64,000 nt of DNA, from assembly GCF_964194025.1 (NCBI RefSeq), contig NC_134480.1, forward strand, positions 33,666,001 to 33,730,000, read 5' to 3'. Shown in pieces: positions 13,801 through 64,000 of the stretch. The stretch comes from Convolutriloba macropyga. Taxonomy: Eukaryota. Positions within the stretch are counted from its first letter, which is position 1. The number at the start of each line of letters is the position of its first letter. Position numbers and translations under genes: made by a program. The notes under the pieces were generated by a model. It did no database searches and was not told where the DNA came from. It saw nothing but the letters and a program-made list of their open reading frames with translations.

Positions 13801-16800
13801 TTCTCATGATGCGTCAGAGTTGATCCGTCGATAGGTTGTTTGCCCGGTGGAAATGATCTGACGGATCATGAGAAGCGTGATATAAAACAAAATTTTCACC
13901 GGGAAAACAACCTATCTTCAGCTTTCCCTCCAGATTACATATCAAATGTTTTTCCACCATTGACGGCTAATACATCCAAGGCGATTCCGGCAGCTCAAAA
14001 ACAGAAGTTTAGCACTACAAGTTTAATATTTGAAATATTTTCGCATGCATTATTTATGTTGTTCGTAACTTTTTCTGCAAATTGTTTTTTCTTCGGCGAA
14101 CCAAAGAAATGCTTGTCCGAGAGTGTTCCTCAAGTTGCCCAATTGCTAAATGGAAAGTAGAATTCCATTTCTAGTGTCATTAACGCGATGGAGCCCTTTT
14201 GACATATGGACTGAGACGTTTTGGTCTCTGAACTGTCGTGGCAACTCATTTGTTTGAGAAATGACACTTGTCAAAACCGCGTGGGTTGATGTCACATATC
14301 AAGGCCTGTTTCATTACCACTGCCAACAGATGAAGTTCTCGTGCAACCTAGTTGGCCGTGCCCGCTTTACGCGAATTATTGTATAAGTAGAACGTAAGAC
14401 TTAAGTGCAGCAATTTTAATCAAGAGACATTAGGTATAATAATTCCTAAGCCAGAAGCCAGAAAGTTTTTCAAAACGAATCAGTGAAAGTCCATTGTTTC
14501 AAATCAATCGAGACAATAATTGAAACTATTAAGACGCCAAAAGGGCCAAATTTTCCCCCAAAAAATGAAAGTTACATAGTATATGCTTCAGTCAAGAGGG
14601 GATTTTTCTGAACATACTATGCAAGAAATTGTCAGATCACAACACTTCAAAGACAGGAGGTAAGAAAACACAAATTCTATTCTGACTAATTTTTTTTAAA
14701 ATGAAGCAGTGCAGAATCTCGCAGATCATTACCACTGGGAAAAAATATCCTAGCGTAAATCCTCAGCTTCTGAAAATTACATGTCAAATGTTTCTGCTCC
14801 GCTGATAGCTAATATATATATAAGGTCAATTCTTCGTTGTCAAAAATAAAACTTAGCAGAAAACCTCCATCGTTTCATGTTAGAGCCGCTATTTGAGAGT
14901 GTTCTTCAAAATGCACAGTTGCTAATTTGACAGGCGAGTTCCGTCTCTAGTGTCATTCACTTGATAGAGAATTTTTGACATAATGACAGGGGTATTTAAT
15001 TACTAATGCCTTTCGCTGAAGCTCTCCTGCAACCTGGTCAGTCTTGATGGTGGTACGTTAATTCATCCTTCGCTTTTTGTCGCGCTTCTCATGATCCGTT
15101 AGATCGATTCCACTGGGGAGAAAATGATCCTATCGTAAAGCTCCAGCTTGTCCTAAAGTTACATGTCAATTGTTTCGGCACCGCTGACGGCTAATACATC
15201 TAAGGGCAATTCTTCCTTGTCAAAACTAAAATTTAGCAGAAGAGGTCCATCGGTTTTGCTCAAAAGAGACAGTAAAAAATGATTAAAGAGCAAACAGCTT
15301 TGAAATATTGTAAAATAAAAAATAAGCGTAACTTTTTCCGAAAAATGAAAGTTACGTAGTATATGTGCTTCAGTCAGGAGGGGATTTTCCTGAACATACA
15401 AAGCAAGAAAGTGTCAAATCACAACATTTCAAAGACAAAGTAGGAAAACACAAATATAATTCTGACCAATTTTTTAAAATGAAGCAGTGCAGGGAAAAAA
15501 TGTCAGTTAACAAAATCTCTGGTCGACAAAATGTCTGATCCAATTAAATTCATAAATATTCGAAACCTTTTTACAGTAAAAAGAAATTTAAACACGGCCT
15601 TACTTCATGTTGTTACGTTAATTTTTCTGGATTTTTTTGCAAACTGTTGCCTCCTTTTTGGCCGGACAAAAAGGCGCTGTCACAGAGTGTTCCTCGAGTT
15701 GTCCGGTTGGTAATTTGACAGTCGAATTTGTCTCTAGTGTCATTCATGTGAAGGAGACCTTTGTCTCATATTGACAAGACATTTTTACCTCTGGATTGCC
15801 GCTGCTACTCTGTTGTCTGTGAATTGACATTTGTCAAACCCGCTTCAAATGGGATACTACATATGACGGCCTATTTCATTATCCTTGCCATCAGCTAACT
15901 AGCTGCAACCTGGCCAGGCGTGATGGCGGTACGTAATCGCATCCTGTGCTTTTTGTTGCTATTTTCATGATCCGTCAGATCAATTCCACTGGAAAGAAAA
16001 TCATCCTATCGTAAATCCTCTGTTTGTCCTAAAAATTAAATGTCAAATATTTTTGCACAGCTGACAGCCAATACATCCATGCGCAATTCTTCCTTGTCAA
16101 AACTAGAAGTTTAGCTTTAACAGTTACATTTTTAATTTTGCAGTAATCAAAACCTTGAACACTGCATTATTTCATGCTCTTACGCTTACATTTCGCTTTT
16201 TGCTATTTATCGGTTATTTTTTGGCTAACCGGAAAGCCGCTATTCCGGAGTGTTCAAGTGTCCCAGTTGCTAATTAGACCGACGAATTCCATATCCAATG
16301 TCATTCACGTGATAGAGCACTTTTGGCATACCGACGACGACGTTTTTGCCTCTGAACTGTCGCGGCAACGGATTGTTTGAGAACTGACCCTCGTTAAACC
16401 GGCTTGGATTGGGATGTCACATATCGCGAGCTATTTCTTTACCACTGCCAACCGCTGCAGCTCTCGTGCAAGCTAGATGGCCGTGCCTGCTTTACGTAAT
16501 TGCATTTTTTTATGGGTGTGGCACTTCTTGTGCTTCGTCAGATGATTTCGACCGTGAAAGAAATCACCCTATCAGGGATCTAGGTTTTCCTAAACATAAC
16601 ATATCAAATGCTTTCGCACCGTTGACCGCTAATACATCATTGGTCAGTTCTTTTTTGTCAAAACTAAAACTAAGACGTCCATCAGACTCAACGAAAAAAT
16701 TGATTGAGGAACAGCCACGAAATATTGTAAAAGTAAAAAAAGAAACCGACATGTGCGGTAATTGTACCCAAAGGACACATTAGGTATAACAATTGATGAG

Positions 16801-18843
16801 ACAAAAGCCGAAAAATTTAGTCAAATCTAAAAAAAATTAAGCAGAAAACTTACCTTGAGGCAAAAAATCAGGAATTTATTTTCCCAAAAATGAAAATTAA
16901 GCTGTATAGGCGTTTCAGTCAGAAGGGGATTGTTCTGAACAAACCAAGCCAGAAGTTGTCAAATGACAACACTTCAAAAACGGCAGGTAAATTAACAAAC
17001 ATCATTCCAAAAATTTTTTCAAGTTGAAGCAATGCGGGGCAATTGACAAAACCGCTCGTCGGGAGTAACCTAATTTAATTGTTTAGTATTTGGAGTAATT
17101 TAGTTTTTCCATAGTAAACAAAAAATTTAAACTGCTGTACTGCATGTTGTTACGCTAATATTTCCTGACTTTTTTGCAAATTGATGGTTTTTTTATGGCC
17201 GACAAAAGGGCCGCTCTTTGAATGTGTTCTTCAAGTTGCCCAGTTGCTAATTTGACTGGCTATTTCCATCTCTAGTTTCATTCGCGCGATGGAGCAATTT
17301 TGACATACGACGAAGACGTTTTTTTTTGCTTCTGAACTGTCTTAGAATTGACACTTGTTAATCATGGGTGAAATAGGATTTCACGTCACGGCCTCTTTCA
17401 TTACCCTTCCCAACAGATAAGTTCTCTTGCAATCTCATCGGCCGTGATGGCGTTACGTAGTTGCAGCCTTTATTTATCACGCTTATGATCCTTCAAATCT
17501 TTTCCATTGAAGAAAAATGTCCTGAAAATAACATGTCAAATAATTTTGCACCGCTGACGGCTTATACAGCTAAGGTCAATTCTTCCTTGTCAAAACTAAA
17601 GCTCAGCAGAAGAGATCCATCGGTTTTGCTCAAAAGAAACAGTAGAATAGAATGACTACGGAACCAACAGCCTTGAAATAATTTACAAATAAAAAGTAGG
17701 CGCGGTAGTTGTACTCAACAGGCGAGTTCCATCTCTACTTTCATTCATGCGATGGAGCCCTTTTGATATACCGACAAAGCCGTTTTTGTTTGGGAAATGT
17801 CTGAGAAATGACACTTGTCAATCACGAGGGGAGTGGGATGCCACATCACGGCCTGTTTCCTACTGTTTCCTACAAAAAATGATCAGGCGACAAGAGGAAC
17901 AAAATTTTGTCGAAACTAAAAATTAAGCTGAATAGATCAATCACTTTTACGCTGAGAATACAGATTAAATGAATCAGATTGGGGATAAATGAATCAGAAA
18001 AGAAGTCAATTGAGCAGATTTTTTATATCATTTTCAAAATCATTGGAGAGAAAAAAGACCGGACGTTTTGTTGAATCTAAGAATTAAGAAGCTTTAGCGC
18101 ATGTTTTTTTAAAACACAACAGACAAAATGAATGAGGAGCAGAAGGCCTGGAATATTTTTTTTCGAAAACCTTAAGCGCATCAAATGTGCTCAAAGAGAC
18201 GCTAGGCACTAATGATAGAGACGCAAAAGGCGGCAAAATCTTGTGATTATAGGCAGCCTGGGTGCAGTTTTACTAACAAGACCTTACATTTAATGAGTGA
18301 GAAACCCAGAAAATTTTCTGAAAACTTAAAATAATTAACATAGGTACGTCAGTTTTACTTAAGAGGTTAAGTAAAACGATTGAGCAAAAAGCTGAGATTT
18401 TTTTTTCAAAATAACTAAGCAGCTTTAGTTTTAGACTAGACAATATTGACGGAAATTTTTTTCAAAACCAAAAATATTGCCAGCTTAGGTGCATCAGTTT
18501 TGCTGAAAAGAGACACTACATAATTTGATTGAGGAGAAAGAGAACTTTCGATGTTTAAAATTAAGCAGCATAGGTTTGTCAGTTTTACTCTAACGATACA
18601 ACAGAAATTGATCCAGGAGGCAAAACACAGGCAATTTTGTCAAAATAAAACTCAAGCTGAAAATGTTTATCGTTTTTTTTTTCGAAAGAGGCAATACAAA
18701 ATGATTCATAGGTGAACGGGCAGCGTCTTTTGTCAAATCTAAACATTTAGCAGAAATGTATCAGTTTTACTTGAAAAAAGACCTGAGATGAAATCTTTGA
18801 GCTGCAAAAGCGAGGATATTGTGTTGAGGTAAAATTTGGCAAG
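7870..18843. repeat. Large degenerate modular repeat mosaic; resumes at ~32244-32865 beyond the LTR element
   Basis: Recurrent modules such as TGACGGCTAATACATC, TTCTTCCTTGTCAAAACTA, CTTCATGTTGTTACGC, CTTCTCATGATCCGTCAGATC and AAAATTAAGCAG...GTGCATCAGTTTTACTC occur many times in the same orientation. Segment ~7915-9450 has a diverged copy at ~10555-11830. No long ORFs. Confidence 0.8.
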
Positions 18844-18848
18844 GTTAT

Positions 18849-19084
18849 TATTATAAAGTGCTGCTTTCTATATTATTATTTTGTTTTACCTCTAGTATCT
18901 TCAGAGTAAAATGCGGGTTCAAAGCCTTATATTCAACTAACTGTTTTTTACTCTTTCCAACTCTTTCAATAAAATTCAATCAGGAGGAATACAACATTAA
19001 GGGGTTTCATCCAATAGAATTATAGCATTATTTTATATCATTCAAATATTCCTTCCAATCATGGGAGGAATGAAATTCCTCATA
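18849..19084 (-). repeat. 3' LTR (236 bp)
   Basis: By eye identical to 32003-32238 except at the first + strand base (T versus A). Preceded on the element strand by the polypurine tract. Confidence 0.95.
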
Positions 19085-19099
19085 CTCCGGCTTCTCTTC
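19085..19099 (-). promoter_or_regulatory. Polypurine tract (plus-strand primer)
   Basis: Minus strand GAAGAGAAGCCGGAG directly abuts the 3' LTR start TATGAGG. Confidence 0.8.
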
Positions 19100-19280
19100 A
19101 AAGTTTTGAGTCCGCTATTTTTTTTTACAAAGACATTGAATAAATTGTTAAGCCGCCACAGCTTTTTCATGCAAGTCATGAAGGAACAATATGAGCGTTA
19201 GAGATTCGATTTTTTCAGAGTTTTACCTCGTCATGGGTTCGAAATAATCTAAGTCATACTGAGTTTTTCAGTTTTGAAGT

Positions 19281-19556
19281 ATGCCTGCTTTTGTCATTGT
19301 CAGTTTGTTGTGTGTGTGGAGTGTGTTTTCCTGCTTTATAATACCAAAGCCAATGAATGCAACTATTGAGTGTTGCCATGACGGTGTTCATTTCCGCGTG
19401 GATGGGAAAATTGTTTCAAGCCTGCCATATTTGATTGAAGAATGCCATCAATCAATCAATTCAACCGCAATTTCCTTCAATTGCGCGCAGCGCCAATTCG
19501 TCTTGTCAGTTGGGATTTTGATGTTGTCTATTCTACTTCAATCGCTTTTCAATTAG
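19281..19556 (+). CDS. Element-encoded antisense small secreted/membrane-anchored protein (91 aa)
   Basis: ATG start, N-terminal hydrophobic signal-like stretch (MPAFVIVSLLCVWSVFSC), Cys-containing core with sequons NAT and NST, and a C-terminal hydrophobic segment (FVLSVGILMLSILLQSLFN). No family recognised. Confidence 0.5.
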   Translation: MPAFVIVSLLCVWSVFSCFIIPKPMNATIECCHDGVHFRVDGKIVSSLPYLIEECHQSINSTAISFNCAQRQFVLSVGILMLSILLQSLFN

Positions 19557-19991
19557 GCTGATGAGCCTCAAGACTGAAAACATTTTGATACTGAAAACAT
19601 CTTGTTTTATTTGTTTATCTACTTGGACTGCTTAACTTCTCCATCATGCTGTCTCTTTTGACTGTTAATTGAATGCTCTGAAAGGCTCCAAGTTTCTTCT
19701 TTTTCTGTTCTAGAGGCCATTAATTCCATTCAATTTACATATTTAACTAAGTTTTTGCGAAGATTAATTGTTTTTTTCTCAATATTCCTGCTCATCGCAT
19801 CAGCTGGCATTTTTTATCGATTGTTTTTCTGTCAATACGAGAAATTGAAGAGTTGTAAGATCATAATTAACGTTTCAGATGGCGTCAATCGCTGTCGTTT
19901 TTTCCCAATTAGCTGAATTAATCTTACTGCTTTTCGAACAACTATTGACGTCAGCAGTATTGCTTACGTAATTACTGAATAAACTACGGCA

Positions 19992-21128
19992 ATGGATAAT
20001 ACAAGGTGAGCGCTAATACTAATGAAGCAATAACTATGAGTATGCAGAGGTAGAAACAGGTTTTTTTTTTGTAGGTTTTCGATTGAGTCATGCGAGGTCG
20101 TGCGAAAGTTTCAAGGGCAATATTGGTCAATCGAGAAAATCGAAAGTTTAGGTTGGCAACAGGTGCGGAATGTTGATGGGGCAGATATCCAAACATGGGT
20201 GGATTTGGGAATACGTGCAAATTCTAAATATCCTAATATTTGTACTGAGAATGGTTGGCCACGCTTTCCTCTCGAGATTAAGAACGAACGGTTCTTCAAT
20301 ATTTGCCCCAATTTTTGCAGACATTTAAGAAGTTCTTCGGAGTGGTCAGATGTTATTAATGACTATCAATCACAAAATAAAATAACGAAGTATTGCAATA
20401 TTTCACCTTCATATTTTGCATCTTCTGGTTGCACTTTTAGTATCGGGGGTGTGATTGATTTTTCGCTCCCTGCGGGGCTACTGTTAACAAAGACAGATGG
20501 TATGGTTCAAGAAGGCGAATGGTTCACTCAGCCACACATTGAGATAGGAGGGGACGATAGTATATCTAAAGTTCCTTTTGGTGACAAACTTTTCGTTATA
20601 TGTGAGCGAGGAGCCGCCTCGGCCAATTTTGATCGTCTTATCACTACACCTCAAGATTTTATTCAATTTTTATTGAAGGGTCCACAGAATACAACTGACA
20701 AGAATACAGTAAGATTCTATTTCCCTAAAAGTTCGTCGTTTTTGTGTCAGCCCGCTCTCTGCTGTCATGCAGTGCTGACTCGATCTGGTCGTTCTTTTGT
20801 GTGTGGTTGGGAAGCCACTATTTTAGACGATCGCAGTCGGTGTTCGGATGTACTGCGATTTTATTGCTACGGCTCGCGACGTGATTTTATTCGCAGTATG
20901 GTTTCGAGAGAGGGAATTGAAAAGACCATAGAATATCTCCGTTTGAAAATCGCAAGTGACACGGATATTTTAAATGACGCGCTGGAGCATTTACTATCGT
21001 TCGAGAATTCGGGTGTTGTTGTCCACTCGGAAAAAAAATCTATCGCTGGTCGGCCACGTGTATCGAAAAAGAAGAAACTTGCCTTGCGTCTTCCTTGTGT
21101 TAAAGCAAAGAAGGGAAAGGAATCCTAA
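19992..21128 (+). CDS. Element-encoded antisense JmjC-domain Fe(II)/2-oxoglutarate dioxygenase (KDM2/KDM7-like); predicted join(19992..20005,20075..21128), 355 aa
   Basis: The ORF 20100-21128 contains WFTQPHIEIGGDDSISKVPFGDKLFVI and LCQPALCCHAVLT, matching KDM2/KDM7 [27 protein letters not shown] and FIPTGWIHAVLT. It lacks a 5' ATG, but a GT-AG intron at 20006-20074 joins ATG 19992 in frame. Basic C-terminus; AATAAA at 21208-21213. Confidence 0.8.
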
Positions 21129-21361
21129 CAATAGGTAAGTTGATGCTTCCATATTTTTTTGTCGATGAATAATGTTTCGTTTCTCTCAAACGCGCGTTTT
21201 ATGACAAAATAAAATTTTGAATTCTTCGGCACAATTATTTGATGAATTGTGTCTTTTGCTTGGAATTCGAAGTTCAAGGCAATAAAAGATTTTGCAGGGG
21301 GTTGATAATAATTAATAGCTGATGCTCTATGACGACCGTAAAAGCAAGGAATTTGCTTCAT
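21125..21361 (-). CDS. Element accessory ORF, 78 aa, unknown function
   Basis: ATG-started ORF whose stop overlaps the JmjC stop. Pattern similarity to the neighbouring ORF at 21539-21883. Confidence 0.45.
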   Translation of the reverse strand: MKQIPCFYGRHRASAINYYQPPAKSFIALNFEFQAKDTIHQIIVPKNSKFYFVIKRAFERNETLFIDKKIWKHQLTYC

Positions 21362-21538
21362 TGTGCTTTAAATAGCAGATTTATGTGTCAAAGAAATTTT
21401 AAGTTCGAATAAAATAACTGATCATACGAAAGTTTCAAATAATTTACCAGACGATAATGTTAATGTTTTTGGTAGTTTAATTATCTTGTTTGGTATCAAT
21501 TACATAGGGTAACAAAGCTGTGTAGCGGTTTTTTGAAG

Positions 21539-21883
21539 TTAAGTGTTTATGTCTTCCAAATCGATATCCACACTTTTTTCACCGTAAGCAAATGCCCATA
21601 AAATCTGGCCTCCATATAAGGAGCTGGGATAAATATAAACGGTTTTTCTCCCGTACACAACTGGTGAAAGTAGATATAAAATTATATATTCACAATTTCT
21701 GGGAATTTCTAGATCAGTTAGTAAGGCATTTTGTCCTCGATGTTTTATTTGAATATACTGAAGAGCTGGTTGAAATGGGATTGGCTCGAGGTTTAGGGTT
21801 GTATTCCATGAGATAATCCGGTCGAGTTGCTTTCTGATGAGACTTTTTGCTTTTCTGTTATGAATAGGGTTTTCAACATTCAT
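21539..21883 (-). CDS. Element accessory ORF, 114 aa from the first ATG (frame open to 21967), unknown function
   Basis: Long open frame in very AT-rich DNA with globular-looking composition. Co-oriented with its neighbours and with gag/pol/env. Confidence 0.5.
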   Translation of the reverse strand: MNVENPIHNRKAKSLIRKQLDRIISWNTTLNLEPIPFQPALQYIQIKHRGQNALLTDLEIPRNCEYIILYLLSPVVYGRKTVYIYPSSLYGGQILWAFAYGEKSVDIDLEDINT

Positions 21884-22059
21884 TCTTTCAGATTTTATGA
21901 ATCTTTTGCTGTAAGTAATGTGGGCGAAAGAGGAATTGTTTAATGTATTGATAACAATGCTGAACAAATTGTTTTAAAGGATAAGAACAACAAAGGGTGT
22001 TTACAATGATTAAGTTAAGAGTTGGCTATTAAGAGATTTCCTGTTGTAATCAAACTTCT

Positions 22060-22368
22060 CTAAGAATCGACAGTGCAAGGATTGTTCAAAATGTCCAGAT
22101 TTATTTCTTCGGAATGGCGCAATTGATGAAGCATAGCTAAGCAATGTGGTTGACTGACAGGTTTCCAGCAAATCATTAGTTTTTGTTTTTCCTGCGTTTC
22201 TACAAAGAAGGCTATTATTTTTTCAGATTCTGATGTGTAACATTTAACAATTTTTGTTACCCGATTTGCATAAATTAGAGTGTCCTGGTCCAGGAAGTAA
22301 ATATTAAATGATCTCCAACTAGTTAAATGCTTTCGCAACGAAAGTTGTTCAGTTGTAAGGAAAGCCAT
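22060..22368 (-). CDS. Element accessory ORF, 102 aa (MAFLTTEQLS...), unknown function
   Basis: ATG at 22368. First of three tandem sense ORFs downstream of env. Confidence 0.45.
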   Translation of the reverse strand: MAFLTTEQLSLRKHLTSWRSFNIYFLDQDTLIYANRVTKIVKCYTSESEKIIAFFVETQEKQKLMICWKPVSQPHCLAMLHQLRHSEEINLDILNNPCTVDS

Positions 22369-23319
22369 CGTTAACAAATTTTTTTTTTTAAAAGAAAACT
22401 CAAATTAGTGAGGTTTTTGCGTGAAAGAGAATTATAATTTTAACATCGAAGTGTGGGAATACTAATGAATGTTGAGACTTTTTTGGTGTAGATGTATTGA
22501 AACTATGACACGGAATTTCTTTTTTTCGGAATATTGTTTTTCAGTTGTTAAGATACGGAACTGTTCAAGAATAATTCAACGATAAAAATTTTCAATTATT
22601 TGTGTGTAATTTTTCGCACTTCTAAATTTAAGGGAATGTATTAGCCAATGAGAAGAGAGAACGGTCATAAATTAAAAGAAGGAAATAAAAATAATGGTGT
22701 TTCCAAAAACAAATAAAAGCGTGCATGGTGAACGTTTTCATTTCCTGTTTGTGATATTCGCTGAAAAGTAACAACTGACTGTAACTGGAAATAAGAATAA
22801 TTTCCCCGGCTCTATCTGGAACTTTTTAGTTGTTTCAAGTAATCGAATAGGTGAAGGAGACAATAATACAACTTTCTGTGTAACAGTTTTTCCTAAAAGT
22901 TATTTGGTGCTGAGAAATCGTTCTTTAAGACTCGTAAATTTTAAGAAAAATAATAGCGGCATTGTTACTCAAATAATACAAATAATGACTTGATACAACC
23001 CAGAGAGAGAAAATTCTCATGACGAGTCAACTACACGTGAAGTAAACTACTTTTGTGTACATCAATTTTTTTTTTATTATTTTTTTTAAGAAAAGGCATA
23101 AGTAAGGGTATGCACGAGAGTGTTCCAGAAGTTGAAATAAAGGGAAAGTTTAATACTTTTCAGGATTGAATTCCTGCCGGTTTTCAACCCCAAAAATGCG
23201 TTTGGTGCAATAAAATTTGAAAATTTTTTGAAGGCATAGGACTTAGCCATTTTTTTTTTTGCAATTTGTGTTTTGTTTTTGATAATTTTTTATGAATAAT
23301 ATGGATATTTCTGGTTCAA

Positions 23320-25689
23320 TTAAGCGGTTCCAATTTTTATTGTGTTCATTGGGTAGTCACTGTACTGTGGGATATTTGTAGATTGGTCGGGTATTGCTGA
23401 ATAAACGGGTTGAGTCGAACATTGTCTTGGAGCGGACGTTTGCTGATCTGCTTTCAATTTTCGGATATAACTTCTCAAAAATGTGTATGGGTTTTTGGGA
23501 ACAGCCGGTTGTTCGTCAGTTGTACTTTCGAGATTCTGTCCAGTCATTTCTACTGGGAGAATCAAAGAACATTTGTGAAGGGGATGTTCAGGGTGATCTT
23601 GTAAATATTCGTAATCATGCATTGATACAACTTGGACGGGTTTTGTTTTTATTTTTCGACCCTCGTGGGTTATTCGGAATGGAAAGCGGCGATGCAGCTT
23701 AGACCATTTGTGTAGGAGGTGACTGTATCCAAGATGGAGGCAAATACTGAATAAGAACGACAGAAAACCGAATAACAGCGACATTTTCCAAGGTATATAT
23801 TGTTCAAATTTTTCCGAAAATTTTGGTTTCATTATCGTCAACTTTCTGATTATTGGCTCCGCTATTTGTCTAACTGCTTCGTTAGATCGTGTCATTGGTA
23901 GGTATTGCAACTGTGGCTGTGCTTCGATCAACAGTTGTTTTTTCGCTTCTGTCATTGAAGAAAAATGCGGCAACTCTTCCAAAGGAGGTAAAAGGGAAAA
24001 CATTGTTGATAACGGGTCCGGCAACTTCACATCAATTCGGAGCTTCGGCTCATGTTCACAGGACGAGAGGTCACTTCTGAGGTGAATTATCTCTCCCTGG
24101 AGTTGCTGTCCACAGGCAAATGTTATAATGCAGACGCGGCATCCCATATGTTCTCTTTTTCACAGTGGGTTACTTCCAATTGTTGATGTTTCGACCAGGC
24201 GATAATTATCTTTAGCGGACATTATCATCCACCTGCCAAATCCAAGGTTTATTGCCTGCTCCGTCAAGGGGAGGTCGACCAAATCCACTTGACAATTTCT
24301 TAGTGCTAGCGTTTCATCATCGTGATAATAAAGAGTTGCTAAACAACTTGATTTCGATGTCTCGGTTGGGATTGCCTTTGAACATACAGCATATCTCGAG
24401 GATCCTATGCATGAGTCGAGTTCGTCATCGGTGAGAAGTGCCACTTCCTTGTAGTCTGATGATATTCCAATATACTTTGTTTCTAGTCGAAAGATGTAAG
24501 CTCTTCCGGTTTGTCCGTCTGGCATCGGCATTGGAATTGCTTTAATTACATTCATTGCTGTTGTGCTTGAAGCCATAGGAATGGCGAGTGTTAGAAGTAG
24601 TCCAGCGTCGGTAGCTCTCACGTTAGTGATCAATTTTGTCTCATAGTAAGAGAGCATGTCTTGTGAAGGTATTGCCAAAGTTAGTCTGTCTTGTTTTCCT
24701 GATTCCATCAGTTGTACTATTTGGAGAACTTTGTAGAGTTGTTCTCTTGGAATTAGGGACATCGGTAGGAACGAGTTTTTGAGAGGTGTCAGTGAGTTCA
24801 ATAAGTTAACACGAAAAGCATATAATGCAGCCCTGTATGATTTGATATTTGTGAATATAACCTGGAAGAGGTTGCTCAACATTAGTGCATGGTGGTTTGT
24901 TTGTTCCCGAACATAGAGAAATTGTACGCAGTTCCGCATGTGGTGAGTGTTTTGTCTGAGGACCGCAAACTGTTTTTCGGCCATTTCCCAATTCTCATTT
25001 TGTGTTTGAATGATCTGATCTTGAGCTCTTTTGATGTCTTTAAGTTCTCCTGCTACAACGTAAAATTTGTCATTAGTTTTCGTCGCAATTTGTTGAATGT
25101 CGGTTGACAGTTGGTTCATATGTTGTATAGCCAGTTTCAGGTTTTCTCTGTTTTCACCGATTCTCTTATCGCATCCTCCAAACACAGATTTTATAACGCA
25201 AAGTACTTTGTCGCCTGCTCCAAGTCCAAGTCCCAATACTGATGCTGCGGCAGCTGCTGCTAATGCTACACCTCGTTTCCTTCTGCTTTCGAAATTGAAT
25301 TGATTGTCTGTCTCGTATCGTAGGAGTTTGTCAAGCTCACCTTTCAGTGTTGCTATATCAAGTTGTGCTGCCACATTTTCGTTTGCTACCTGTTGTGCAA
25401 TCCAGCGTAGTCCGTGTGTGTTCTCTGTCATGTTGGTGTAATTGAGGGGGCATCCATAGTTATCTTTTGTCCAAAGTTGTTCAATTTCGTTCGTAAGGTT
25501 AGCCAGTCGTCCATCAACTTTCTGGTCATACTGGGGAAATGGGACCAAAAGATCAAGTTTAACGAATCTTTCTGTTTGTAGTATTCTTTGATAAAGGTTG
25601 AAAATGACACCTTTTCGGGTTTCGGTCGCTTTTTGTTGGTAAGTGAAATAAATGGTAACAGTAAGAATTAAAATGGACAAAAGTTTCAT
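23320..25689 (-). CDS. env: Env-like class I fusion glycoprotein (paramyxovirus/baculovirus F-like), ~789 codons, interrupted by one in-frame TGA at 24160-24162
   Basis: Signal peptide MKLLSILILTVTIYF; furin site RRKR followed by the fusion peptide GVALAAAAAASVLGLGLGAG; heptad-repeat region; Cys-rich region; TM helix MSLLFGFLSFLFSICLHLGY. The 509-aa and 275-aa ORFs share one frame: ...NPL-TGA-KREH-MGCRVC... Confidence 0.9.
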
Positions 25690-25766
25690 AGTTGGTTAAG
25701 ACAATAAGATAAGAGTAATAATATTAATGGTTGGAAAAGGTTTATTGTAGTTGCACTTTGTTTTCT

Positions 25767-28700
25767 TTATTTTTTTTTATTAAAAGAAAATTCTTGGTGC
25801 AGTTTACCGTCCAAAATTTGCCTGTTTAGTTCTAGCGGCACTACATAGCGTTTTTTATCTTGCTTTAGTGGAAACCGTGTTAATGGTACAATACTTTTAT
25901 GTGTGCTGGTACCTACAACACCTGGCGGGGGCTCGAAGACTTGTATGTCGTGATGGTTCGCTTCTTGCGATGCTGTTCGGTGGTTTTCGTCAGAGCTTGT
26001 TGTGCTGACACTCTGTTGATCTCGGGTTGGAACTGTGTTGAATTCTCCTGGTGCTGCTGGCCATTCTGAGTCGCTAAAGGGGTCTGCCAAATTTGATAGT
26101 TCTTCGTCTGTTATGTAACCTTCAGTTGTTGCGTTGTCTCCAATTTGGCTCACGGGGGGTGTGAGTGATTCTGTGATGAGTTCTTCGTCATCAGAATGTG
26201 GTCCCATTGTTATTGTAAGTTCAGGTTGGTGGTTTGGGAGTATGGTCGTTACGGATACTTCTGGCTGGGCATCGTCATCTTCGATCAGCTGAAGAAGATT
26301 ATACGGCGAGTACTGTCTCGCTAGCTCAAATCGTTCTCCGGATCTTAGGTTGTAATTTCGATCAGAACCTAATCTAGCGTTATTTGACAATGTGTTTGCT
26401 GGTACTTCCGTCAAATCTGTGTTCTGAGGAGGTAGAATGTTAGCAGTGTCTATTGACTCAGGTGATGTATGCGAGGTTTCGGTGTTTGTTTGACCTTCGA
26501 CAACAAAAACGTCATCATTCAGCTCAACAATGTTTTGTGACGGTCGCAGTAGAGTTGCTGGGTCACTAGTATTGTAGTGTACTAGTTCGTTCGAGTTTTC
26601 ATTAATCCTAACATGTCTTGGGGCGTCATTTTCTGATTGGGCTCGTACAAGGACACGTGCTATATGTCTTTCAAGCTGTGTATCAAAAATTTCAGGTTCA
26701 TTATCTTCATCGTTTACTTCCGCTGGCTCAAAAAGAAGAGGGTTAACTGTCTCGATATCTGGCACGACGAAGTTGGGTTTTATTGGACGAAGACGAATTC
26801 GATGACAGCAATATGTTTTATGTGTTCCAGTTTGACGCACAATATAATTGCTATTTGTCAAGACTTGTTCAACTCTGTATAGTGCTTTCCATTTGACTTT
26901 GTTTTTGTGCATTATCGAAGACTGGTGGACTGCTGTTGGGTCTAACATCAGACAATAGTCATGTAGCTCCAGTGGGGCTGCGCCTGCTTTTCTATCGTAA
27001 TATTGTCTGTACCTGTTGTAAGTAGACATCAAGTTCTCTTTTACTTTCGCGAATTGCTCTAGGGTTGCGTCTTGTAACTGTCTCAGACTCTCGAAGCTTG
27101 GCTTGTATGTTCTGAATTGTCTGTTATGGAAACGCAAGTCTAGCGGCGTGTTAGGTGGTCTTCCGTGAAACAGATCGGACGGTGTACATCCGATCGAAGC
27201 ATTGTATGTTGTATTATGAACGAAAATTGCGAGATCCAAATGGTTGTGCCAATTCTCACCGTATGAGTTTCTGTGCATTTTTAGAAATTGTTTGAGGGGG
27301 CCGTGGTTCCTCTCAAGTAGTCCTATTGTTTGTGCGTGTTTGATTGTGGCGTGTTTCAGTTCTATTTGTAGCGTTTTGCACAGCTCCCTCAGCAGTTGAG
27401 ATGTGAATGCCGTGCCGAGGTCCGTTACTAGCATTGTGGGAATGTACGAATGTTTTAGTATAATTGAAACCAATGCTTTGCAGACTGAGTAAGCATCAGT
27501 TTTCCGTAGGGGAACAGCAAACATGTATTTGGAAAAGACATCTATGGCCGTTAGAATATAGCAATATATTTTGCCGGGCAGTTTGCCTACAAGATCTATC
27601 TGTAACATATCCTCGGGAAAGATTTGGGTCGCTGATATTGGTTGCAAAGGTGGTCGGAGGGCTGATGTGGGAGCTGGTTTGTGTTGAAGACATGTGAGAC
27701 AGTTTTTGATGTAGTCGGTTATCACTTCAGAGAATCCAGGAAAGTAGAATCTCCTTCGAAACTCTTTGATAGTAATCGAGATTCCAAGGTGACCTCGATA
27801 GGGACTATTGTGTACTCTGTAAAGAACTTCGGCTCGCAGTTGTTGAGGTACGCAATACTGCAAGAGTGCCACACGTCCTGTCTGGTCGAAGAATTTTCTG
27901 TAGAGCACGCCTTGTTGTATTGTTAATCTTGGTGACTGCTTCAAGTACTTCGTCAGGTCGAATGATAGGTATGATCGGTCCGTGGGGTATTGATTAGTTT
28001 GAATCCATTGAAAGACTACTCGAATGTTACTATCCTGTTGCTGTTCGTTCGCTAAGTCAACTGGTATACATCGATCCGACAGGTCAAAGTCGTCAACAGG
28101 GTTTTCCATCACAACGCTGTTTACTTGTATTGGTTCGACATCGTACATGCCTCCCCAGCTTCTACCTTCTAAATTTTGATATTTTGATTTAATATCTGGG
28201 TTACTCGATGAAGTGAGGGAAAGAAATGAGTTGTCTGGTGTTTTAGATAAAACATCAACATCAATTTTATGGACTGGTAGTTTTTCAGCAATGCGCAGTT
28301 GCATTTTTTCTTCTGGATTTATGTGAATCCGTGAGAGATAGTCCGCTGCTAGATTGGTTTTTCCTGGGACGTGTCCCAGAATAAAATTGAAACTAAGCAC
28401 ATGATCAACTGCTGTCCAAAGAGGGGATGGTATTGTTTTAGCTTGGAAGAAGCGTGTCAATGCTCGGTTGTCAGTCAGAATGAGTATGGGTTGGGTTGCT
28501 CCCCAGACAATGTGACCAAAAGTGTCCAAAGCGTAATGAACTGCCGCGAACTCCTTCGCGTAGATTGACAACTTAAGGAAGGAGGGAGGGAAAATTCGTG
28601 AACCAAAACAGACTGGTGCGTATTGAAATTGATTCTCAATCTGGCAGTAATCTTTTATCATTAGAACGTACCCTGCTGCATAGAATGAAGCATCTGCCAT

Positions 28701-30830
28701 AATGACATATTGGTCATTTTGTCTAGGCAAACGGAGGCTCAGTTGGCATGCGTGTTTGAGATTGGTTTTGAGTGTATGGAGAATTTCTTCATGCTCATCT
28801 GTCGTTTTGAAATCAGTTTCGTTCCTGAGAAGTTGGTAGAAGGGCAGTAGTTTCTCTGCTAGTTCCGGAATGAACTCTTTGTAGAATTGGAAGAATCCGA
28901 TCATGCGTTTTGTTTGTTTTGTGTTTGTGGGCATTTTTAAGCTTCTGAGGAATTTTTCTATCTTCCATTCAATTGGTGATATTCCTTCGCCCGATATAGT
29001 CTTTCCCAAAAATACTATACGCGTTACTCCAAATTGGCATTTTTCAGTAGATAATTTCAATCCTGATTTTTCTAGACATTCAAAGACAGCTCTCAGATTC
29101 TCAATCATTTCTTCAACTGTGCAAGATGCTGTTGCAATGTCGTCTACATATTGTGTACATTTGTCTGCGGTAATCACTGAGTCTAGAGTTTCCCTCATAA
29201 AAGAGCTGAATGCACTTACTGATCTACTGAGGCCTTGAGCAAGTCGTAAAAATGCCCAGGTTCGACTGGCAAAGTTGAACGCTAGAAGTTGTACAGATTG
29301 TTGGTCTGCCATGCGTAATGTAAAGTATCCCTGACTTCCGTCCATCTTGCAGAACAAATTTTTGCCTGCGAAGTGGGAACTGGCATCCATCAGGGTTGAG
29401 ATTGGGAAATTGTTTTGATGATAATCATTTCTGAGCAGATGGTTTATTCTTCGAAGATCTATTAGTAATCTGAGTTTTCCAGATGGTTTTCGTTGCGCAA
29501 ATATGGGTGAAGAATATTTTGAAAATGGCAGGGTAGTTATTATTCCGTAATATTGTAGCAATGCTAATTCGAGTAGGAGCTCTTCTTTCAAATGGATTGG
29601 AGTTGGCGGACTTTGAGTATATACAGGACGGTTATGCTCCGGTGTTAATTTTATTAGAAAGTCGTTGTTAACTCCGATATTCAGTCTGTGTCTCGCAAAA
29701 ATTTTGTTATAATCGACGAGGAGATCTTCTAATTGTTTTTTCGACTTTTCGTCCAGTACAGATTCTGTCCAATTGAAGCTTTCGATGAATTGTTTTCGAC
29801 TTTCTTCATCTTGTTTGGGGTCCAATGACTCTGCTTTTTTGAATTCAATCAGTGAATTGTATATTCGTTTTTCAAGTCCAACAAGTTTGTCTGGGTCATT
29901 ACATGTCTCAGGCGTAGGGAACCAGAATTTGTTAATTTGTTTTTCAGGAGGCTGGTTATATTTGTTTTTCATCTCAATGCTATTTAGAATTAGCTGCTGC
30001 TTGCGCTTTGTGTAGTTTTTGAGAAGTTCAGGCTCTAGAGGCATAATATAAGATGCTTGCTCAGCTGTTAATACAGTGAACTCACCAATTTTTGTTCCTG
30101 CTTTTAGGTGGACTGGCGCATCAATAATATTAATGACAAATAGGAAGAGGTTGTTGTTCGTATCAGCCTGCACAAGGGCGTTACTGAAGACTAATCCAGA
30201 TTTTGTTTCGAAGCGGCGGGACGGTTCAAATACGCCGCAAGCGCTATCTGGTAGATGCTCATTTGTGATTATTGGTTGACAACGAACTGTTTGCGCCTTT
30301 TGTGCTTCAACAGTTGCATCTTCTGCTATAATGATTTGATAGTGATGTTTTGTGTTGACTCTTTTCGTTGACTCTTGTTCATAGATATGATTAAGCTCGA
30401 AAGTGAAATCTGGGAATTGAAGTATTCGTTTTCTACAGTTAATGGTCACATTATATGCGTTGAAGAAAGTGGCACCTAGGATTACTCCGTTGAGGGATTT
30501 GAAAATCATAAATCTGTCTTGGAGATTAAATGGTCCTAACGTGAATCGAATTTTTGCTTGAAAAAGTATTGTTACTTCTTCTTTTGTTGCTACTACTGCT
30601 TTCGAAGGAGGAGCTGGAAGCTTCTCTCTCACATTTTTAGTGTTTTCTGCAATTTTTTCAAAAATATGAAGGGGCATGCCACTGGCGAAAGCGCCAGTAT
30701 CTACTATCGCTTTATATAAAAGGTGATTAAAATGAATAGAGATTAGAAAAAGTGATGAAGTTTCTTCGTCGGAGTTCATGCTTACATCGACGGTTTGTAG
30801 GGATTGCTGTGGCGGCGAAACTAGTTTTTT
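25767..30830 (-). CDS. pol: Pol polyprotein (aspartic protease, RT, RNase H, integrase), expressed as Gag-Pol by -1 frameshift
   Basis: AIVDTGA (protease), LRLLIDLRRIN and QYVDD (RT), MADASFYAAG (RNase H), H-x6-H...CLTC zinc finger with QIDLVG / VTDLG / LLERNHG (integrase DDE). Uninterrupted 1670 aa from ATG 30779, and the frame stays open up to the slippery site. Confidence 0.97.
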   Translation of the reverse strand, partial: KKLVSPPQQSLQTVDVSMNSDEETSSLFLISIHFNHLLYKAIVDTGAFASGMPLHIFEKIAENTKNVREKLPAPPSKAVVATKEEVTILFQAKIRFTLGPFNLQDRFMIFKSLNGVILGATFFNAYNVTINCRKRILQFPDFTFELNHIYEQESTKRVNTKHHYQIIIAEDATVEAQKAQTVRCQPIITNEHLPDSACGVFEPSRRFETKSGLVFSNALVQADTNNNLFLFVINIIDAPVHLKAGTKIGEFTVLTAEQASYIMPLEPELLKNYTKRKQQLILNSIEMKNKYNQPPEKQINKFWFPTPETCNDPDKLVGLEKRIYNSLIEFKKAESLDPKQDEESRKQFIESFNWTESVLDEKSKKQLEDLLVDYNKIFARHRLNIGVNNDFLIKLTPEHNRPVYTQSPPTPIHLKEELLLELALLQYYGIITTLPFSKYSSPIFAQRKPSGKLRLLIDLRRINHLLRNDYHQNNFPISTLMDASSHFAGKNLFCKMDGSQGYFTLRMADQQSVQLLAFNFASRTWAFLRLAQGLSRSVSAFSSFMRETLDSVITADKCTQYVDDIATASCTVEEMIENLRAVFECLEKSGLKLSTEKCQFGVTRIVFLGKTISGEGISPIEWKIEKFLRSLKMPTNTKQTKRMIGFFQFYKEFIPELAEKLLPFYQLLRNETDFKTTDEHEEILHTLKTNLKHACQLSLRLPRQNDQYVIMADASFYAAGYVLMIKDYCQIENQFQYAPVCFGSRIFPPSFLKLSIYAKEFAAVHYALDTFGHIVWGATQPILILTDNRALTRFFQAKTIPSPLWTAVDHVLSFNFILGHVPGKTNLAADYLSRIHINPEEKMQLRIAEKLPVHKIDVDVLSKTPDNSFLSLTSSSNPDIKSKYQNLEGRSWGGMYDVEPIQVNSVVMENPVDDFDLSDRCIPVDLANEQQQDSNIRVVFQWIQTNQYPTDRSYLSFDLTKYLKQSPRLTIQQGVLYRKFFDQTGRVALLQYCVPQQLRAEVLYRVHNSPYRGHLGISITIKEFRRRFYFPGFSEVITDYIKNCLTCLQHKPAPTSALRPPLQPISATQIFPEDMLQIDLVGKLPGKIYCYILTAIDVFSKYMFAVPLRKTDAYSVCKALVSIILKHSYIPTMLVTDLGTAFTSQLLRELCKTLQIELKHATIKHAQTIGLLERNHGPLKQFLKMHRNSYGENWHNHLDLAIFVHNTTYNASIGCTPSDLFHGRPPNTPLDLRFHNRQFRTYKPSFESLRQLQDATLEQFAKVKENLMSTYNRYRQYYDRKAGAAPLELHDYCLMLDPTAVHQSSIMHKNKVKWKALYRVEQVLTNSNYIVRQTGTHKTYCCHRIRLRPIKPNFVVPDIETVNPLLFEPAEVNDEDNEPEIFDTQLERHIARVLVRAQSENDAPRHVRINENSNELVHYNTSDPATLLRPSQNIVELNDDVFVVEGQTNTETSHTSPESIDTANILPPQNTDLTEVPANTLSNNARLGSDRNYNLRSGERFELARQYSPYNLLQLIEDDDAQPEVSVTTILPNHQPELTITMGPHSDDEELITESLTPPVSQIGDNATTEGYITDEELSNLADPFSDSEWPAAPGEFNTVPTRDQQSVSTTSSDENHRTASQEANHHDIQVFEPPPGVVGTSTHKSIVPLTRFPLKQDKKRYVVPLELNRQILDGKLHQEFSFNKKK

Positions 30831-31819
30831 GATTGGCGGAAAGGCAGATTTGCTCCCCTGTTTGGCGGTTGTCTATGCCAACAGTCTTTTTGCATATGTC
30901 CTGCTTTTCCACACTGACGGCAAATGATGCGTCCTGGTGTTTGCGATCGGTTTCGAGATTGATTCTGAATGCCTCCTCGTGTGTAGCCTCTACCTCGATA
31001 CGCTCCTCGAGTGTTGTAGTTCGAATTCCCTCGGGTTTGTCTCGGATAATTATTTTGTGGATTCCAAAAATGTTGGCTTTGATCATAGTTCTGTGAATCA
31101 TAGTTTTGTTGATTTTGTTGCACAAATTGTTGCTGCAATTGATCTTGTTTAGCTTCAATTTGAGCTATTGCATTCATCAAATCTGATGTTGAGTTCTGAG
31201 AAATTTCAATTTCATTAAACGCTGTTAATGGTTCTACTTCGGGTTGCAGTTTGTCTGCGCGAAGTCGGCGTTTGATTATTTTGCAAAGGTCTGTGACATT
31301 AGAATCCTCGTCTTCTTTCAGTAAAGCTTTTTTGTATTTAAAGGGCATGCCTTGAATGAACTGTTCTCTAACCTTTCTGGTCCGCTCATCTGATCTGTCA
31401 ATTGCTGCTACTCCTGTCGATGCGGGTACATCTACAATTGATAGTTCAGCCAACCTCTGCAAATCTGTCAAAAAATCATCTGCGTCTTCTTTCGCTGGAT
31501 CAAATTTCCTGTTGTTCAATTCGAATTCGAAGTTGCGCCGTTTATCTGCTCCTGCATAGCGATTCCTTAAGCATCGCAAAGACTGTTCTAGGTCGTCTTG
31601 TTGAGCTTGGGTCAAGCCCAGATAGAAACTCAAAGCTGTACCCCAAAGGTGAAGATGGAGATATCGACATTGCTGGCTATCCGCTGTTGGAATTCTTGCT
31701 ACTGCTAGGCTTGCGCGAAACAAACTTTCGAACTGATTCCAGTTTTCTTTTGGTGTACCGCCAAAAGGTTTGAGTTGAATGTGAGGTGCACTCGTTGGTG
31801 GAGGTGGTGGTGTGGTCAT
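30821..31819 (-). CDS. gag: Gag (332 aa) with CCHC zinc knuckle
   Basis: First ATG at 31819 (MTTPPPPP). Capsid-like LKPFGG..ENW..F and VREQFIQGM segments, Gln/Asn/RG-rich region, and CRQCGKAGHMQKDC knuckle. Confidence 0.93.
   Translation of the reverse strand: MTTPPPPPTSAPHIQLKPFGGTPKENWNQFESLFRASLAVARIPTADSQQCRYLHLHLWGTALSFYLGLTQAQQDDLEQSLRCLRNRYAGADKRRNFEFELNNRKFDPAKEDADDFLTDLQRLAELSIVDVPASTGVAAIDRSDERTRKVREQFIQGMPFKYKKALLKEDEDSNVTDLCKIIKRRLRADKLQPEVEPLTAFNEIEISQNSTSDLMNAIAQIEAKQDQLQQQFVQQNQQNYDSQNYDQSQHFWNPQNNYPRQTRGNSNYNTRGAYRGRGYTRGGIQNQSRNRSQTPGRIICRQCGKAGHMQKDCWHRQPPNRGANLPFRQSKN
30824..30830 (-). promoter_or_regulatory. -1 ribosomal frameshift slippery heptamer A_AAA_AAC
   Basis: Gag ends TCA AAA AAC TAG. 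The -1 frame reads AAA AAA CTA GTT TCG CCG...AGC ATG AAC straight into pol without a stop. Confidence 0.85.
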
Positions 31820-31984
31820 TATCAAAAAAAAGTATTTTTCTAGGGAAAGCAAAGTGCAATGTGTACGTCAAAGTAGAATTTGTAAAAGTCAAAGATTTTT
31901 CGAAAAATAAGTTTGAATGGAAAGGAATTAATTTTGAGATTAGTTTTCCAATTGAATTTTGTTTTCCGATTTAAAAGAGAAGGC

Positions 31985-32002
31985 TTTAGAACCTTGTCAC
32001 CA
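31985..32002 (-). promoter_or_regulatory. Primer-binding site
   Basis: TGGTGACAAGGTTC... begins immediately after the 5' LTR; TGG is complementary to the tRNA CCA end. The primer tRNA is not determined. Confidence 0.7.
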
Positions 32003-32238
32003 AATTATAAAGTGCTGCTTTCTATATTATTATTTTGTTTTACCTCTAGTATCTTCAGAGTAAAATGCGGGTTCAAAGCCTTATATTCAACTAACTGTTT
32101 TTTACTCTTTCCAACTCTTTCAATAAAATTCAATCAGGAGGAATACAACATTAAGGGGTTTCATCCAATAGAATTATAGCATTATTTTATATCATTCAAA
32201 TATTCCTTCCAATCATGGGAGGAATGAAATTCCTCATA
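32003..32238 (-). repeat. 5' LTR (236 bp)
   Basis: Direct repeat of 18849-19084. Followed on the element strand by the PBS and flanked outside by the GTTAT TSD. Confidence 0.95.
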
Positions 32239-33459
32239 GTTATCGTCCTCAACGAACAAACCACGATGTCCAACGAAGAAGAAATGACAAAACTTCACAA
32301 CTGGAGTGGAATAAACAGACATCAATTGACTTTTTTTGAAAACAAAGCATTGAAGGACAACAAGTGGATCTTAAAAAGATTTTTGATCGGGGGTTACCTA
32401 ATTACATTGTTGAAGAATTGTTACAATTTAATTATTTTTTAGCCAAAATTTTGGACGCTGCCTTACTTTCTGTTGTTACGCTATTGTTTCTTGATTTTTT
32501 GCAAATTGCTGGTTTTTTCGGCCAATCAGAGAGCCGGTGTCAGAGAGTACTCTTCCAGTTGCCCAGTTGCTAATTGGACAGTCAAACGCCTTATCCATTG
32601 TCCTTCACGCGATGGAATCATTTTGACTTGTGGACTTTTTGCCTCTGCAGCAGTGAAGCTCTTGTGTAACCGGGTTAGGCATGATGATGGCTTTACGTAA
32701 TTGCATCATTCGTTTTATGTTCTTCTCTTGATCCGTCAGATCATTTCTACCGAGGAAGAAACTCATGCTGTCGTCAGCCCTCAGCATGTCCTGAACACTC
32801 CACGTAAATTGTATTTGCAGCGTTGATGGCTGATACATCTACTGCCATTGCTCTCTTGTCAAAATGGTACAGAAGGGATTAGCTAACAGTAATATCCTTT
32901 TGTTGTTTGCGGTCGGACGTTGGAAATAGTAGCGGAAGCTGAATCCCTCTCGGATATTGAAGTTACTAAAACCTGCTTTTAGATGCATGTTGAATACAAC
33001 CTTCAGTTACGTACTGGCCAGTTTTTTTTAAAGAGAACTGAAAAGTGGTTATGAATTTAAATATAGGTCAGCGCAATTAATAGCCAACTAACACTTTCAG
33101 TAAACGAAAGGAGATTCAACCTGTCAAAACAACTCAATCTGAACGATTAAATTATAGAATCTTAAAAAAAATAACGTTTTAGCAATAGGCAAGCAGTTAC
33201 GTGAGACGAGTGCGCAAACAGAGGCTTGACTTCATAGGAAATTCTAGAAAACTTTCCCTGCAGTTTCTTATTTGCCAATAGACTTTATAAAGTAAATTTA
33301 ATTATTGAAAAATCAAGGTGCAAGTCATTGAGTTTTTTCATTGATCATCTTTGAATATAATGTTGGTCATTGGTATCAGTACATTGAAAATTAATTGCCG
33401 TTCGAAGATCCTTTTTCGATTGTTCAAAAAGTTCGGGCCAAAGAGTTTGGTCATTTCAG

Positions 33460-63579: not shown

Positions 63580-64000
63580 GAAAGGGCTGATTCGTCCGTT
63601 CTGTATCTGGATTTTGAGGTGGCTTGAAGCACTGTTGGATGTTGATTAAACAATAATTGAGGAACAAACCACCTTCAAATAAGTTGTTGATTCTGTACAT
63701 ATTTCCGTCCATCCACCTGTAGTGTATGACCCCATCACGTATGAACGATGACGAGATCCGTTCGTCACCTTTCATTAATATGAGAAAATTAAGCCTGGGT
63801 TTACTTGCATCTTCAAGTATTGTAACATTGTAGAAAGAGGGGCTTTCTTCTAAGGCACGTTTGTTTTTAAGAACTTCGATTTTCTTGATGCGTCTAGTAA
63901 ATTTTACAATGATTGGTCTGTTCTTGTATCGAGAAGGAAGTCGATGAGCAATTGATATGTCAGTAGCATCAACGTTAACATTTAGGTCAGCTGTTACATC
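63569..64000 (-). CDS. LINE ORF1 (L1-ORF1p-like RRM/CTD region), partial
   Basis: The frame is open from the window end and reads ...TDISIAHRLPSRYKNRPIIVKFTRRIKK...VTILEDASKPR...FIRDGVIHYR. Confidence 0.8.
   Translation of the reverse strand, partial: DVTADLNVNVDATDISIAHRLPSRYKNRPIIVKFTRRIKKIEVLKNKRALEESPSFYNVTILEDASKPRLNFLILMKGDERISSSFIRDGVIHYRWMDGNMYRINNLFEGGLFLNYCLINIQQCFKPPQNPDTERTNQPFRET

Follow-up and report, generated by a model that had tools for sequence, protein, structure and literature searches.

The window analysed here is a 64,000-nucleotide stretch of contig NC_134480.1 from Convolutriloba macropyga, part of a 1.18 Gb eukaryotic genome assembly (label G000). Its minus strand carries, at 18849-32238, a young copy of an env-bearing Ty3/gypsy-type long terminal repeat (LTR) retrotransposon (Table 1). 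Between env and the polypurine tract (PPT) of this element lies an accessory block of about 4.2 kb, with three sense and two antisense open reading frames (ORFs). One antisense gene encodes a predicted JmjC-fold dioxygenase; the other, called M, encodes a putative small membrane protein.

The two LTRs are identical at 235 of 235 bases (18850-19084 against 32004-32238), the terminal bases 18849 and 32003 differing, and GTTAT stands on both sides of the element. A first-pass annotation had proposed a recent insertion from near-identical LTRs, a perfect target-site duplication (TSD) and open gag and pol, and all of this is borne out. The LTR termini are TAT...ATA, not TG...CA. Among nine fetched elements of the family with both LTRs visible, the present one included, the TSD is mostly 5 bp, or 6 bp overlapping the terminal base. 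Other hallmarks of Ty3/gypsy elements are present as well: two LTRs, a TSD in the 4-6 bp class, a PPT and a primer-binding site, the last a match of just 7 nt; in most relatives the 5' LTR is again followed by TGG(T/C)GA(C/T)A. Pol matches the Pfam models RVT_1 (430-594), RT_RNaseH (660-782), Integrase_H2C2 (977-1035) and rve (1055-1144), and the DTG motif of the protease is seen in the sequence. The resulting order, protease, reverse transcriptase (RT), RNase H, integrase, fits Ty3/gypsy (Metaviridae). Pol lies in the -1 frame relative to gag, and an A-AAA-AAC heptamer, presumably the frameshift site, occurs ahead of the gag stop.

The env product has a signal peptide, an RRKR furin site, a fusion-peptide-like stretch and a transmembrane segment. 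Its best match in PDB is a "fusion protein" (E 0.049), and it has no Pfam match. The end assigned to env in the first-pass annotation, 23320, is correct, and an in-frame TGA interrupts the frame at 24160-24162. That codon is not a stop in seven of the seven closest other copies, so the premature stop is private to the present copy, and programmed readthrough is rejected. The family as a whole consists of multi-copy elements with intact gag, pol and env, which is how errantiviruses in the broad sense are defined in PMC13524379 (Chary and Hayashi), the env of the present copy being stopped.

Coordinates confirm the arrangement first described for the block, in which three sense and two antisense ORFs converge and the stop codons of JmjC and of the 78-aa ORF overlap in CTAA at 21125-21128. 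The overlap is a detail of this family; in sister families those stops are 0.4-0.7 kb apart.

Table 1. Features of the element, in window positions.
Feature	Position	Strand	Remarks
Whole element	18849-32238	-	13,390 bp; runs 32238 -> 18849
TSD GTTAT, left copy	18844-18848	.	
TSD GTTAT, right copy	32239-32243	.	
3' LTR	18849-19084	-	236 bp
5' LTR	32003-32238	-	
PPT-like sequence GAAGAGAAGCCGGAG	19099-19085	-	
Short primer-binding-site-like TGGTGAC	31996-32002	-	7-nt match to tRNA-Trp 3' end
gag	30821-31819	-	332 aa, open, CCHC zinc knuckle
pol	25767-30872	-	open; protease motif, weak dUTPase-like region, RT (YVDD), RNase H, integrase
env	23320-25689	-	789 codons, single frame; broken by in-frame TGA at 24160-24162
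Sense ORF 102 aa	22060-22368	-	small beta-sheet-plus-helix family common to distant gypsy lineages
Sense ORF 114 aa	21539-21883	-	no known family; 21 matches in this genome
Sense ORF 78 aa	21125-21361	-	no known family; 26 matches in this genome
Antisense gene M	19281-19556	+	91 aa; hydrophobic N-terminus, C-x-CC-x-C ectodomain, hydrophobic C-terminus
Predicted JmjC first coding exon	19992-20005	+	ATG plus AG|GTGAG donor, in frame with exon 2
Predicted 69-nt GT-AG intron	20006-20074	+	CTAAT branch-like site, poly-T tract
JmjC-fold dioxygenase main exon	20075-21128	+	355 aa if spliced as predicted; HxE...H triad; basic C-terminal tail

Inheritance and selection of the accessory block

A DNA search of the genome with 19085-23320 returned 45 matches from 25 of 26 candidates: the copy in the window, five further full-length copies at 97-100%, and split or older copies down to about 65%. 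The first-pass annotation had asked whether other full-length copies lack the block, whether it has terminal inverted repeats or a TSD of its own, and whether its ORFs lack conservation. The five full-length copies at 97-100% all carry it, its ends show no terminal repeats or TSD, and its ORFs have homologs in relatives, with ratios of non-synonymous to synonymous substitution (dN/dS) of 0.22-0.55. For near, mid-distance and far copies in turn, DNA alignments gave 0.47, 0.40 and 0.25 for JmjC; 0.36, 0.52 and 0.52 for M; 0.55, 0.43 and 0.33 for the 102-aa ORF; 0.23, 0.49 and 0.39 for the 114-aa ORF; 0.22, 0.52 and 0.28 for the 78-aa ORF; and, for comparison, 0.25, 0.45 and 0.43 for pol. The DNA-alignment version was used because values from protein matches are biased low. 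Two observations count against reading these ratios as selection: non-coding control stretches gave 0.41-1.10, and in near copies another frame scored below the ORF frame for the 102-aa and 91-aa genes. Because of both, and because the copies compared are not mutually independent, the signal of purifying selection in these alignments is firmest for JmjC and weakest for the 91-aa gene.

We hold with high confidence that the block is a real, selected accessory cassette. It is very improbable that it arose by nested insertion instead, or that it is host DNA carried along passively, its ORFs open by chance. Low dN/dS does sometimes occur in the non-coding controls too, and a 17-bp inverted repeat is present at 19689-19705 and 21065-21081; however, the right arm of this repeat falls within the JmjC coding sequence, the block is found in all close copies and has neither TSD nor terminal repeats at its ends, and same-orientation homologs occur across families whose pol is just about 45% identical, as well as in a separate data set. 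For JmjC, M and the 102-aa ORF the nested insertion is refuted. Four further frames were rejected as genes. The 70-aa ORF at 20196-19984 varies in length or vanishes between copies; the 74-aa ORF at 21592-21816 and an 84-codon frame have dN/dS of 1.25 and 0.94 in mid-distance copies (protein-match version); a 73-codon frame is likewise treated as a non-gene.

The antisense module and the small sense ORFs

The antisense JmjC ORF of the first-pass annotation is present and ends where it was placed, and only its extent from an ATG has to be revised: the first in-frame ATG gives just 208 aa, and homology starts about 140 codons upstream of it. The JmjC protein is probably the 355-aa product of the predicted splicing, rather than the 208-aa frame. 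The intron is found in nine of nine copies at least 89% identical (66-69 nt) and in 10 of 21 segments examined overall (65-69 nt), with the frame of exon 2 kept despite the change in length. An intron can persist in a retroelement if it is antisense to the packaged RNA, and the antisense orientation of JmjC fits such retention. Contigs from four runs of unspecified kind cover the block evenly, with no joint at the predicted intron, and are uninformative on expression.

The structure model of this protein (predicted local distance difference test score, pLDDT, 79.7) predicts a JmjC double-stranded beta-helix fold. The best Foldseek rows are KDM7A, PHF8, PHF2 and KDM2A, with E from 3e-8, and the first 16 rows listed belong to the KDM7/KDM2 group. 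In the VIA structure search, C. elegans KDM7A (ceKDM7A) scores Z 14.0 with a root-mean-square deviation of 3.9 over 253 aligned residues, and the first 17 rows are all JmjC proteins (Z 11.1-14.0). The same protein is the best PDB sequence match of the JmjC profile (E 0.061), with the T-x-x-H-x-E-x-GG, G-E-K and HAVLT motifs in register. Atlas features also point to JmjC, and the Atlas matches include JMJD6-family clusters. In the metal triad H154-E156-H231, the first two residues are kept in 14 of 15 family members; H231, T151 and K171 are kept in all 15, and conservation along the alignment is among the highest at the metal ligands and at the Thr and Lys that bind 2-oxoglutarate. The second ligand is Glu, not Asp as in the KDM7/KDM2 subfamily. 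Across the genome, 25 of 27 ORFs retain HxE...H and two have lost a metal ligand; outside it, HxE/D is kept in 51 of the 59 homologs that show the motif. Identity between families is 31-36%, and the C-terminal tail is basic and resembles a nuclear localization signal (NLS), with GRP/RGR motifs. The family has 353 matches at E <= 0.001 among 1.84 billion representatives; the homolog searches returned no named proteins or taxa.

M has a predicted signal peptide at its hydrophobic N-terminus and a predicted membrane anchor at the C-terminus, and its four cysteines are invariant in 12 of 12 aligned proteins. An Atlas search with M gave no usable match.

The wider distribution of these genes was followed with JmjC as the query, giving 130 matches from 124 of 701 candidates in the genome, most of them at 33-41% identity and mostly without stops. 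Twenty distant loci, picked across subgroups, were fetched. JmjC is antisense within an element with pol and env at all 20, gag being visible in 19; simple LTR pairs 97.2-100% identical enclose 16 of these elements, three lie in tandem arrays, and one has no pair in view. Two layouts occur, with JmjC after env in 11 elements and between pol and env in nine (the second layout). M homologs lie upstream of JmjC in both, with hydrophobic start and end. M and JmjC form a module common to many families, of which the block in the window is one case. JmjC clades broadly follow RT and env clades in quick trees without an outgroup, made from elements of this genome only; a conflict between JmjC and RT in a first tree vanished with more taxa (support 86). 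Four metagenome loci encode JmjC relatives at 31-32%. In one (L254) the order env, M-like ORF, JmjC follows the second layout, and another (L256) has an M-like ORF and JmjC; the M-like calls are made from cysteine pattern and position, the M profile scores being weak.

Several variants of the module were seen besides. A group of elements with near-identical RT and env has clearly different JmjC alleles (L101-L108), a pattern that suggests cassette exchange between backbones. L234:4140-8980 and L239 represent a family with a longer antisense cassette. Its JmjC has 496 aa, and besides M it includes two more ORFs, one of 277 aa with another cupin-like motif and one of 90 aa that is basic. A family lacking JmjC (L242:6930-8660) has M and antisense ORFs of 103 and 132 aa; the 103-aa ORF has no Pfam match, and its pattern is reminiscent of an integrase zinc-binding helix. 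At G000:C16:47052000-47068500 (L070 and neighbours) two LTR matches 23 kb apart enclose at least seven decayed tandem copies of a segment with JmjC and the 78-aa ORF, and at G000:C6:30432305-30445584 there are four JmjC matches, three of them equal-scoring, with a 4.1-kb period.

Where antisense transcription begins may differ between the layouts. In the present element the M start lies 197 bases from the 3' LTR with no plus-strand TATA between, and an antisense start in the 3' LTR is possible for this copy. In the second layout the M start is about 0.5-0.7 kb from env, head-to-head with it, and TATA-like and GTAAG donor-like sites lie upstream of M in some families; this position speaks for an internal promoter. 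Since about 3 kb separate the module from the 3' LTR in the second layout, that LTR can hardly drive it throughout. The first-pass annotation had proposed a complex lineage with a cassette partly transcribed inward from the 3' LTR: the heritable, selected, bidirectional cassette stands, and LTR drive is unsupported as a general rule, since the module is that far off in nine of 20 elements. Acceptor-like sites within 25 nt before the M start occur at seven of nine listed loci, a tenth entry with wrong coordinates being left out; the comparable figures are one of 18 for sense starts and, as background, 122 of 1465 for ATGs (8%). One such site precedes the M ATG of the present element. The simplest common reading, we infer, is a spliced antisense unit with its own promoter.

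The three sense ORFs have different ranges. When the genome was searched with the 102-aa ORF, the best 150 of 603 candidates were scored, and all matched. In elements of the second layout, members of its family precede gag; in a far gypsy lineage, whose pol is about 25% identical, they stand in tandem triplets ahead of a Monjiviricetes-type fusion gene. The protein model has a pLDDT of 86 and no clear fold match, the best Z in three libraries being 5.1; a chromo or chromo-shadow fold is unsupported, since none is among the rows listed from those libraries. The 114- and 78-aa proteins are confined to close relatives, and sister families have three other small ORFs at the same position. The idea of a single family for all small sense ORFs was dropped, as significant links to others came only from the 102-aa ORF and none from those of 114 and 78 aa. 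In a far gypsy lineage that is abundant (L220-L229), five small members of the 102-aa family surround a Monjiviricetes-type fusion gene of 902 aa, and pol is followed by an antisense ORF of about 128 aa; no JmjC was seen in 20-kb stretches of six copies.

Proposed function and rival readings

The antisense JmjC of the family may be an iron/2-oxoglutarate demethylase that removes repressive histone methyl marks and counters host silencing, a reading to which we assign a probability of about one half. Somewhat more tentatively, we propose a clade of env-bearing retrotransposons whose histone demethylase, encoded on a mobile spliced antisense module, erases heterochromatin from element copies; M and the family of small sense proteins would then make up an accessory kit like that of a virus. 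We picture a distinct antisense RNA that is spliced and whose promoter lies immediately ahead of M; in the second layout this promoter would be internal, in the present element either internal or part of the LTR. Because of the antisense orientation, the intron would not be lost from the packaged genome. JmjC would reach the nucleus by means of its basic tail, and demethylation there of methyl-lysine of H3K9/H3K27 type, as for the KDM7 group, would weaken silencing of the element. For M we envisage a role at the cell surface, and for the small sense proteins binding to host factors.

Several results weigh against this proposal. Pfam JmjC, at its curated cut-off, matched none of 15 family members. 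Pfam scans found no PHD, CXXC or other reader domain, which leaves targeting unexplained. The top VIA rows are nearly tied, with JMJD6 at 13.8, PHF2 at 13.5, JMJD5 at 13.4 and FIH at 13.1, at 8-13% identity, and the fold therefore leaves the substrate unfixed. Acceptor-like sites precede just three of eight distant JmjC starts. JmjC occurs without M in two of the 20 mapped elements. Of ten relatives selected on RT, by eye so as to avoid known JmjC matches, four have JmjC, eight have M (two weak, E 0.016) and two have neither. One of the latter two has identical LTRs and an RT nearly identical to that of a module-bearing element, and so the module can be lost. It is optional for transposition, because young elements lack JmjC, M or both; such natural near-identical elements with and without the module provide a built-in comparison.

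The near-ties bear directly on a rather unlikely alternative, that JmjC is an active dioxygenase, hydroxylating or demethylating a non-histone substrate (RNA, a host defence or splicing factor, Gag or Env), like JMJD6, JMJD5, TYW5 or FIH. Enzymes of this kind tie with KDM7 in VIA, the Atlas matches include JMJD6-family clusters, JmjC has no chromatin reader domain, and it travels with a predicted membrane protein. The KDM7/KDM2 rows that head the Foldseek list, the motifs aligned with ceKDM7A and the basic NLS-like tail with its GRP/RGR motifs argue against it. It is improbable that JmjC is non-catalytic and, as a decoy or scaffold, binds silencing factors or histones with methyl marks in the manner of fission-yeast Epe1, which reportedly acts without catalysis. 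Fast divergence between families and loss of a metal ligand in two of 27 members would suit a scaffold, but metal ligands and 2-oxoglutarate Thr and Lys remain among the best conserved columns, and most motif-bearing outside homologs keep HxE/D. Quite improbable, too, is a mainly self-limiting antisense unit, in which convergent transcription would dampen the element and the proteins would serve superinfection exclusion or benefit the host. The overlapping convergent stops of the present copy would agree with this, as would M, which looks like a small surface protein and occurs in more of the RT-picked relatives than JmjC does; in the second layout, however, the module is head-to-head with env, and JmjC-bearing families are abundant and young.

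If the histone demethylase reading is true, a transposon-encoded JmjC enzyme makes it testable whether LTR elements enzymatically undo chromatin silencing or only evade it. Because the family is invisible to Pfam, similar cargo may have been missed in other genomes.

Related systems and neighbouring features

Histone demethylases KDM7A, PHF8 and KDM2 share with the present protein the JmjC fold and the T-x-x-H-x-[DE]-x-GG, G-x-K and HAV-x-T motifs; here the second metal ligand is Glu, identity is 11-14%, and PHD, CXXC and a Pfam JmjC match are absent. Among mobile elements, the "ancient errantiviruses" described in parts of PMC13524379 are env-bearing Ty3/gypsy elements with a paramyxovirus-F-type env. 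They have in common with the present family the gag-pol-env order, multiple near-identical young copies, and an env with furin site, fusion-peptide-like stretch and transmembrane segment; the difference is that five genes are added here, two of them antisense, and that the module is movable. Neither JmjC nor antisense nor accessory occurs as a word in the main text of that paper. Env-bearing gypsy elements have so far been described as gag-pol-env only, whereas here the kit is comparable to that of complex viruses and is kept under selection across many young families. A literature search, judged by titles and the starts of abstracts and with most subscription journals and supplements outside its scope, turned up no report of an LTR element with a JmjC gene.

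Orchid Gypsy elements with an AlkB demethylase of N6-methyladenosine (m6A), as presented in passages of PMC9289625, are a precedent for a 2-oxoglutarate dioxygenase in gypsy elements. Like the present family, they are LTR retrotransposons with a fixed 2-oxoglutarate/Fe dioxygenase, an intact HxD/E...H triad and a proposed counter to host control. They differ in that the fold is AlkB, an RNA substrate was demonstrated in vitro, the capture is recent and the gene close to those of the host, and the host is a plant; here the JmjC fold is deeply diverged with no close cellular homolog found, and the gene is antisense in env-bearing elements.

The first-pass annotation regarded antisense genes as a trait of complex retroviruses. 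This is too narrow: according to passages of PMC11963269, the plant gypsy elements Retand, Grande and RIRE2 also have conserved antisense ORFs, in a region of 2.9-6.6 kb before the 3' LTR, and a title in its reference list gives the Grande antisense gene its own promoter. Those elements differ in having a TRP28 domain of unknown function, no env and no enzyme. HTLV-1 hbz, also described in PMC11963269, lies like the present gene near the 3' end of an LTR element and is antisense and protein-coding; splicing is predicted for the gene here. It differs in belonging to Retroviridae, encoding a bZIP protein and having its promoter in the 3' LTR, whereas here a Ty3/gypsy-type element carries an enzyme fold and a module that also occurs about 3 kb from the LTR. 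In bdelloid rotifer LTR elements (passages of PMC5408684), enzymatic and small membrane ORFs are likewise exchanged between distant retroelements, with an F-type env in one lineage; the cargo there is GDSL and DEDDy, and JmjC is absent from those passages. Oikopleura Tor elements have internal promoters, and the passages of PMC4402516 describe no antisense genes.

The element stands head-to-head with a host gene whose exons span window 33500-59233 on the plus strand, with kinase-like and BEACH domains and a start about 1.3 kb from the 5' LTR; we take it to be WDR81-like. The insertion site falls within an array of degenerate dispersed repeats (window 9500-17800 and 32513-32875). In another copy of the present family (L041-L042), part of a sister-family element is nested in pol in the opposite orientation. 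Elsewhere in the window, non-LTR retrotransposon-like frames occur at 60654-63645 (-) and 4330-5864 (+), the latter with an RT match for 4330-4812, and a tRNA-Trp is located at 2982-3053.

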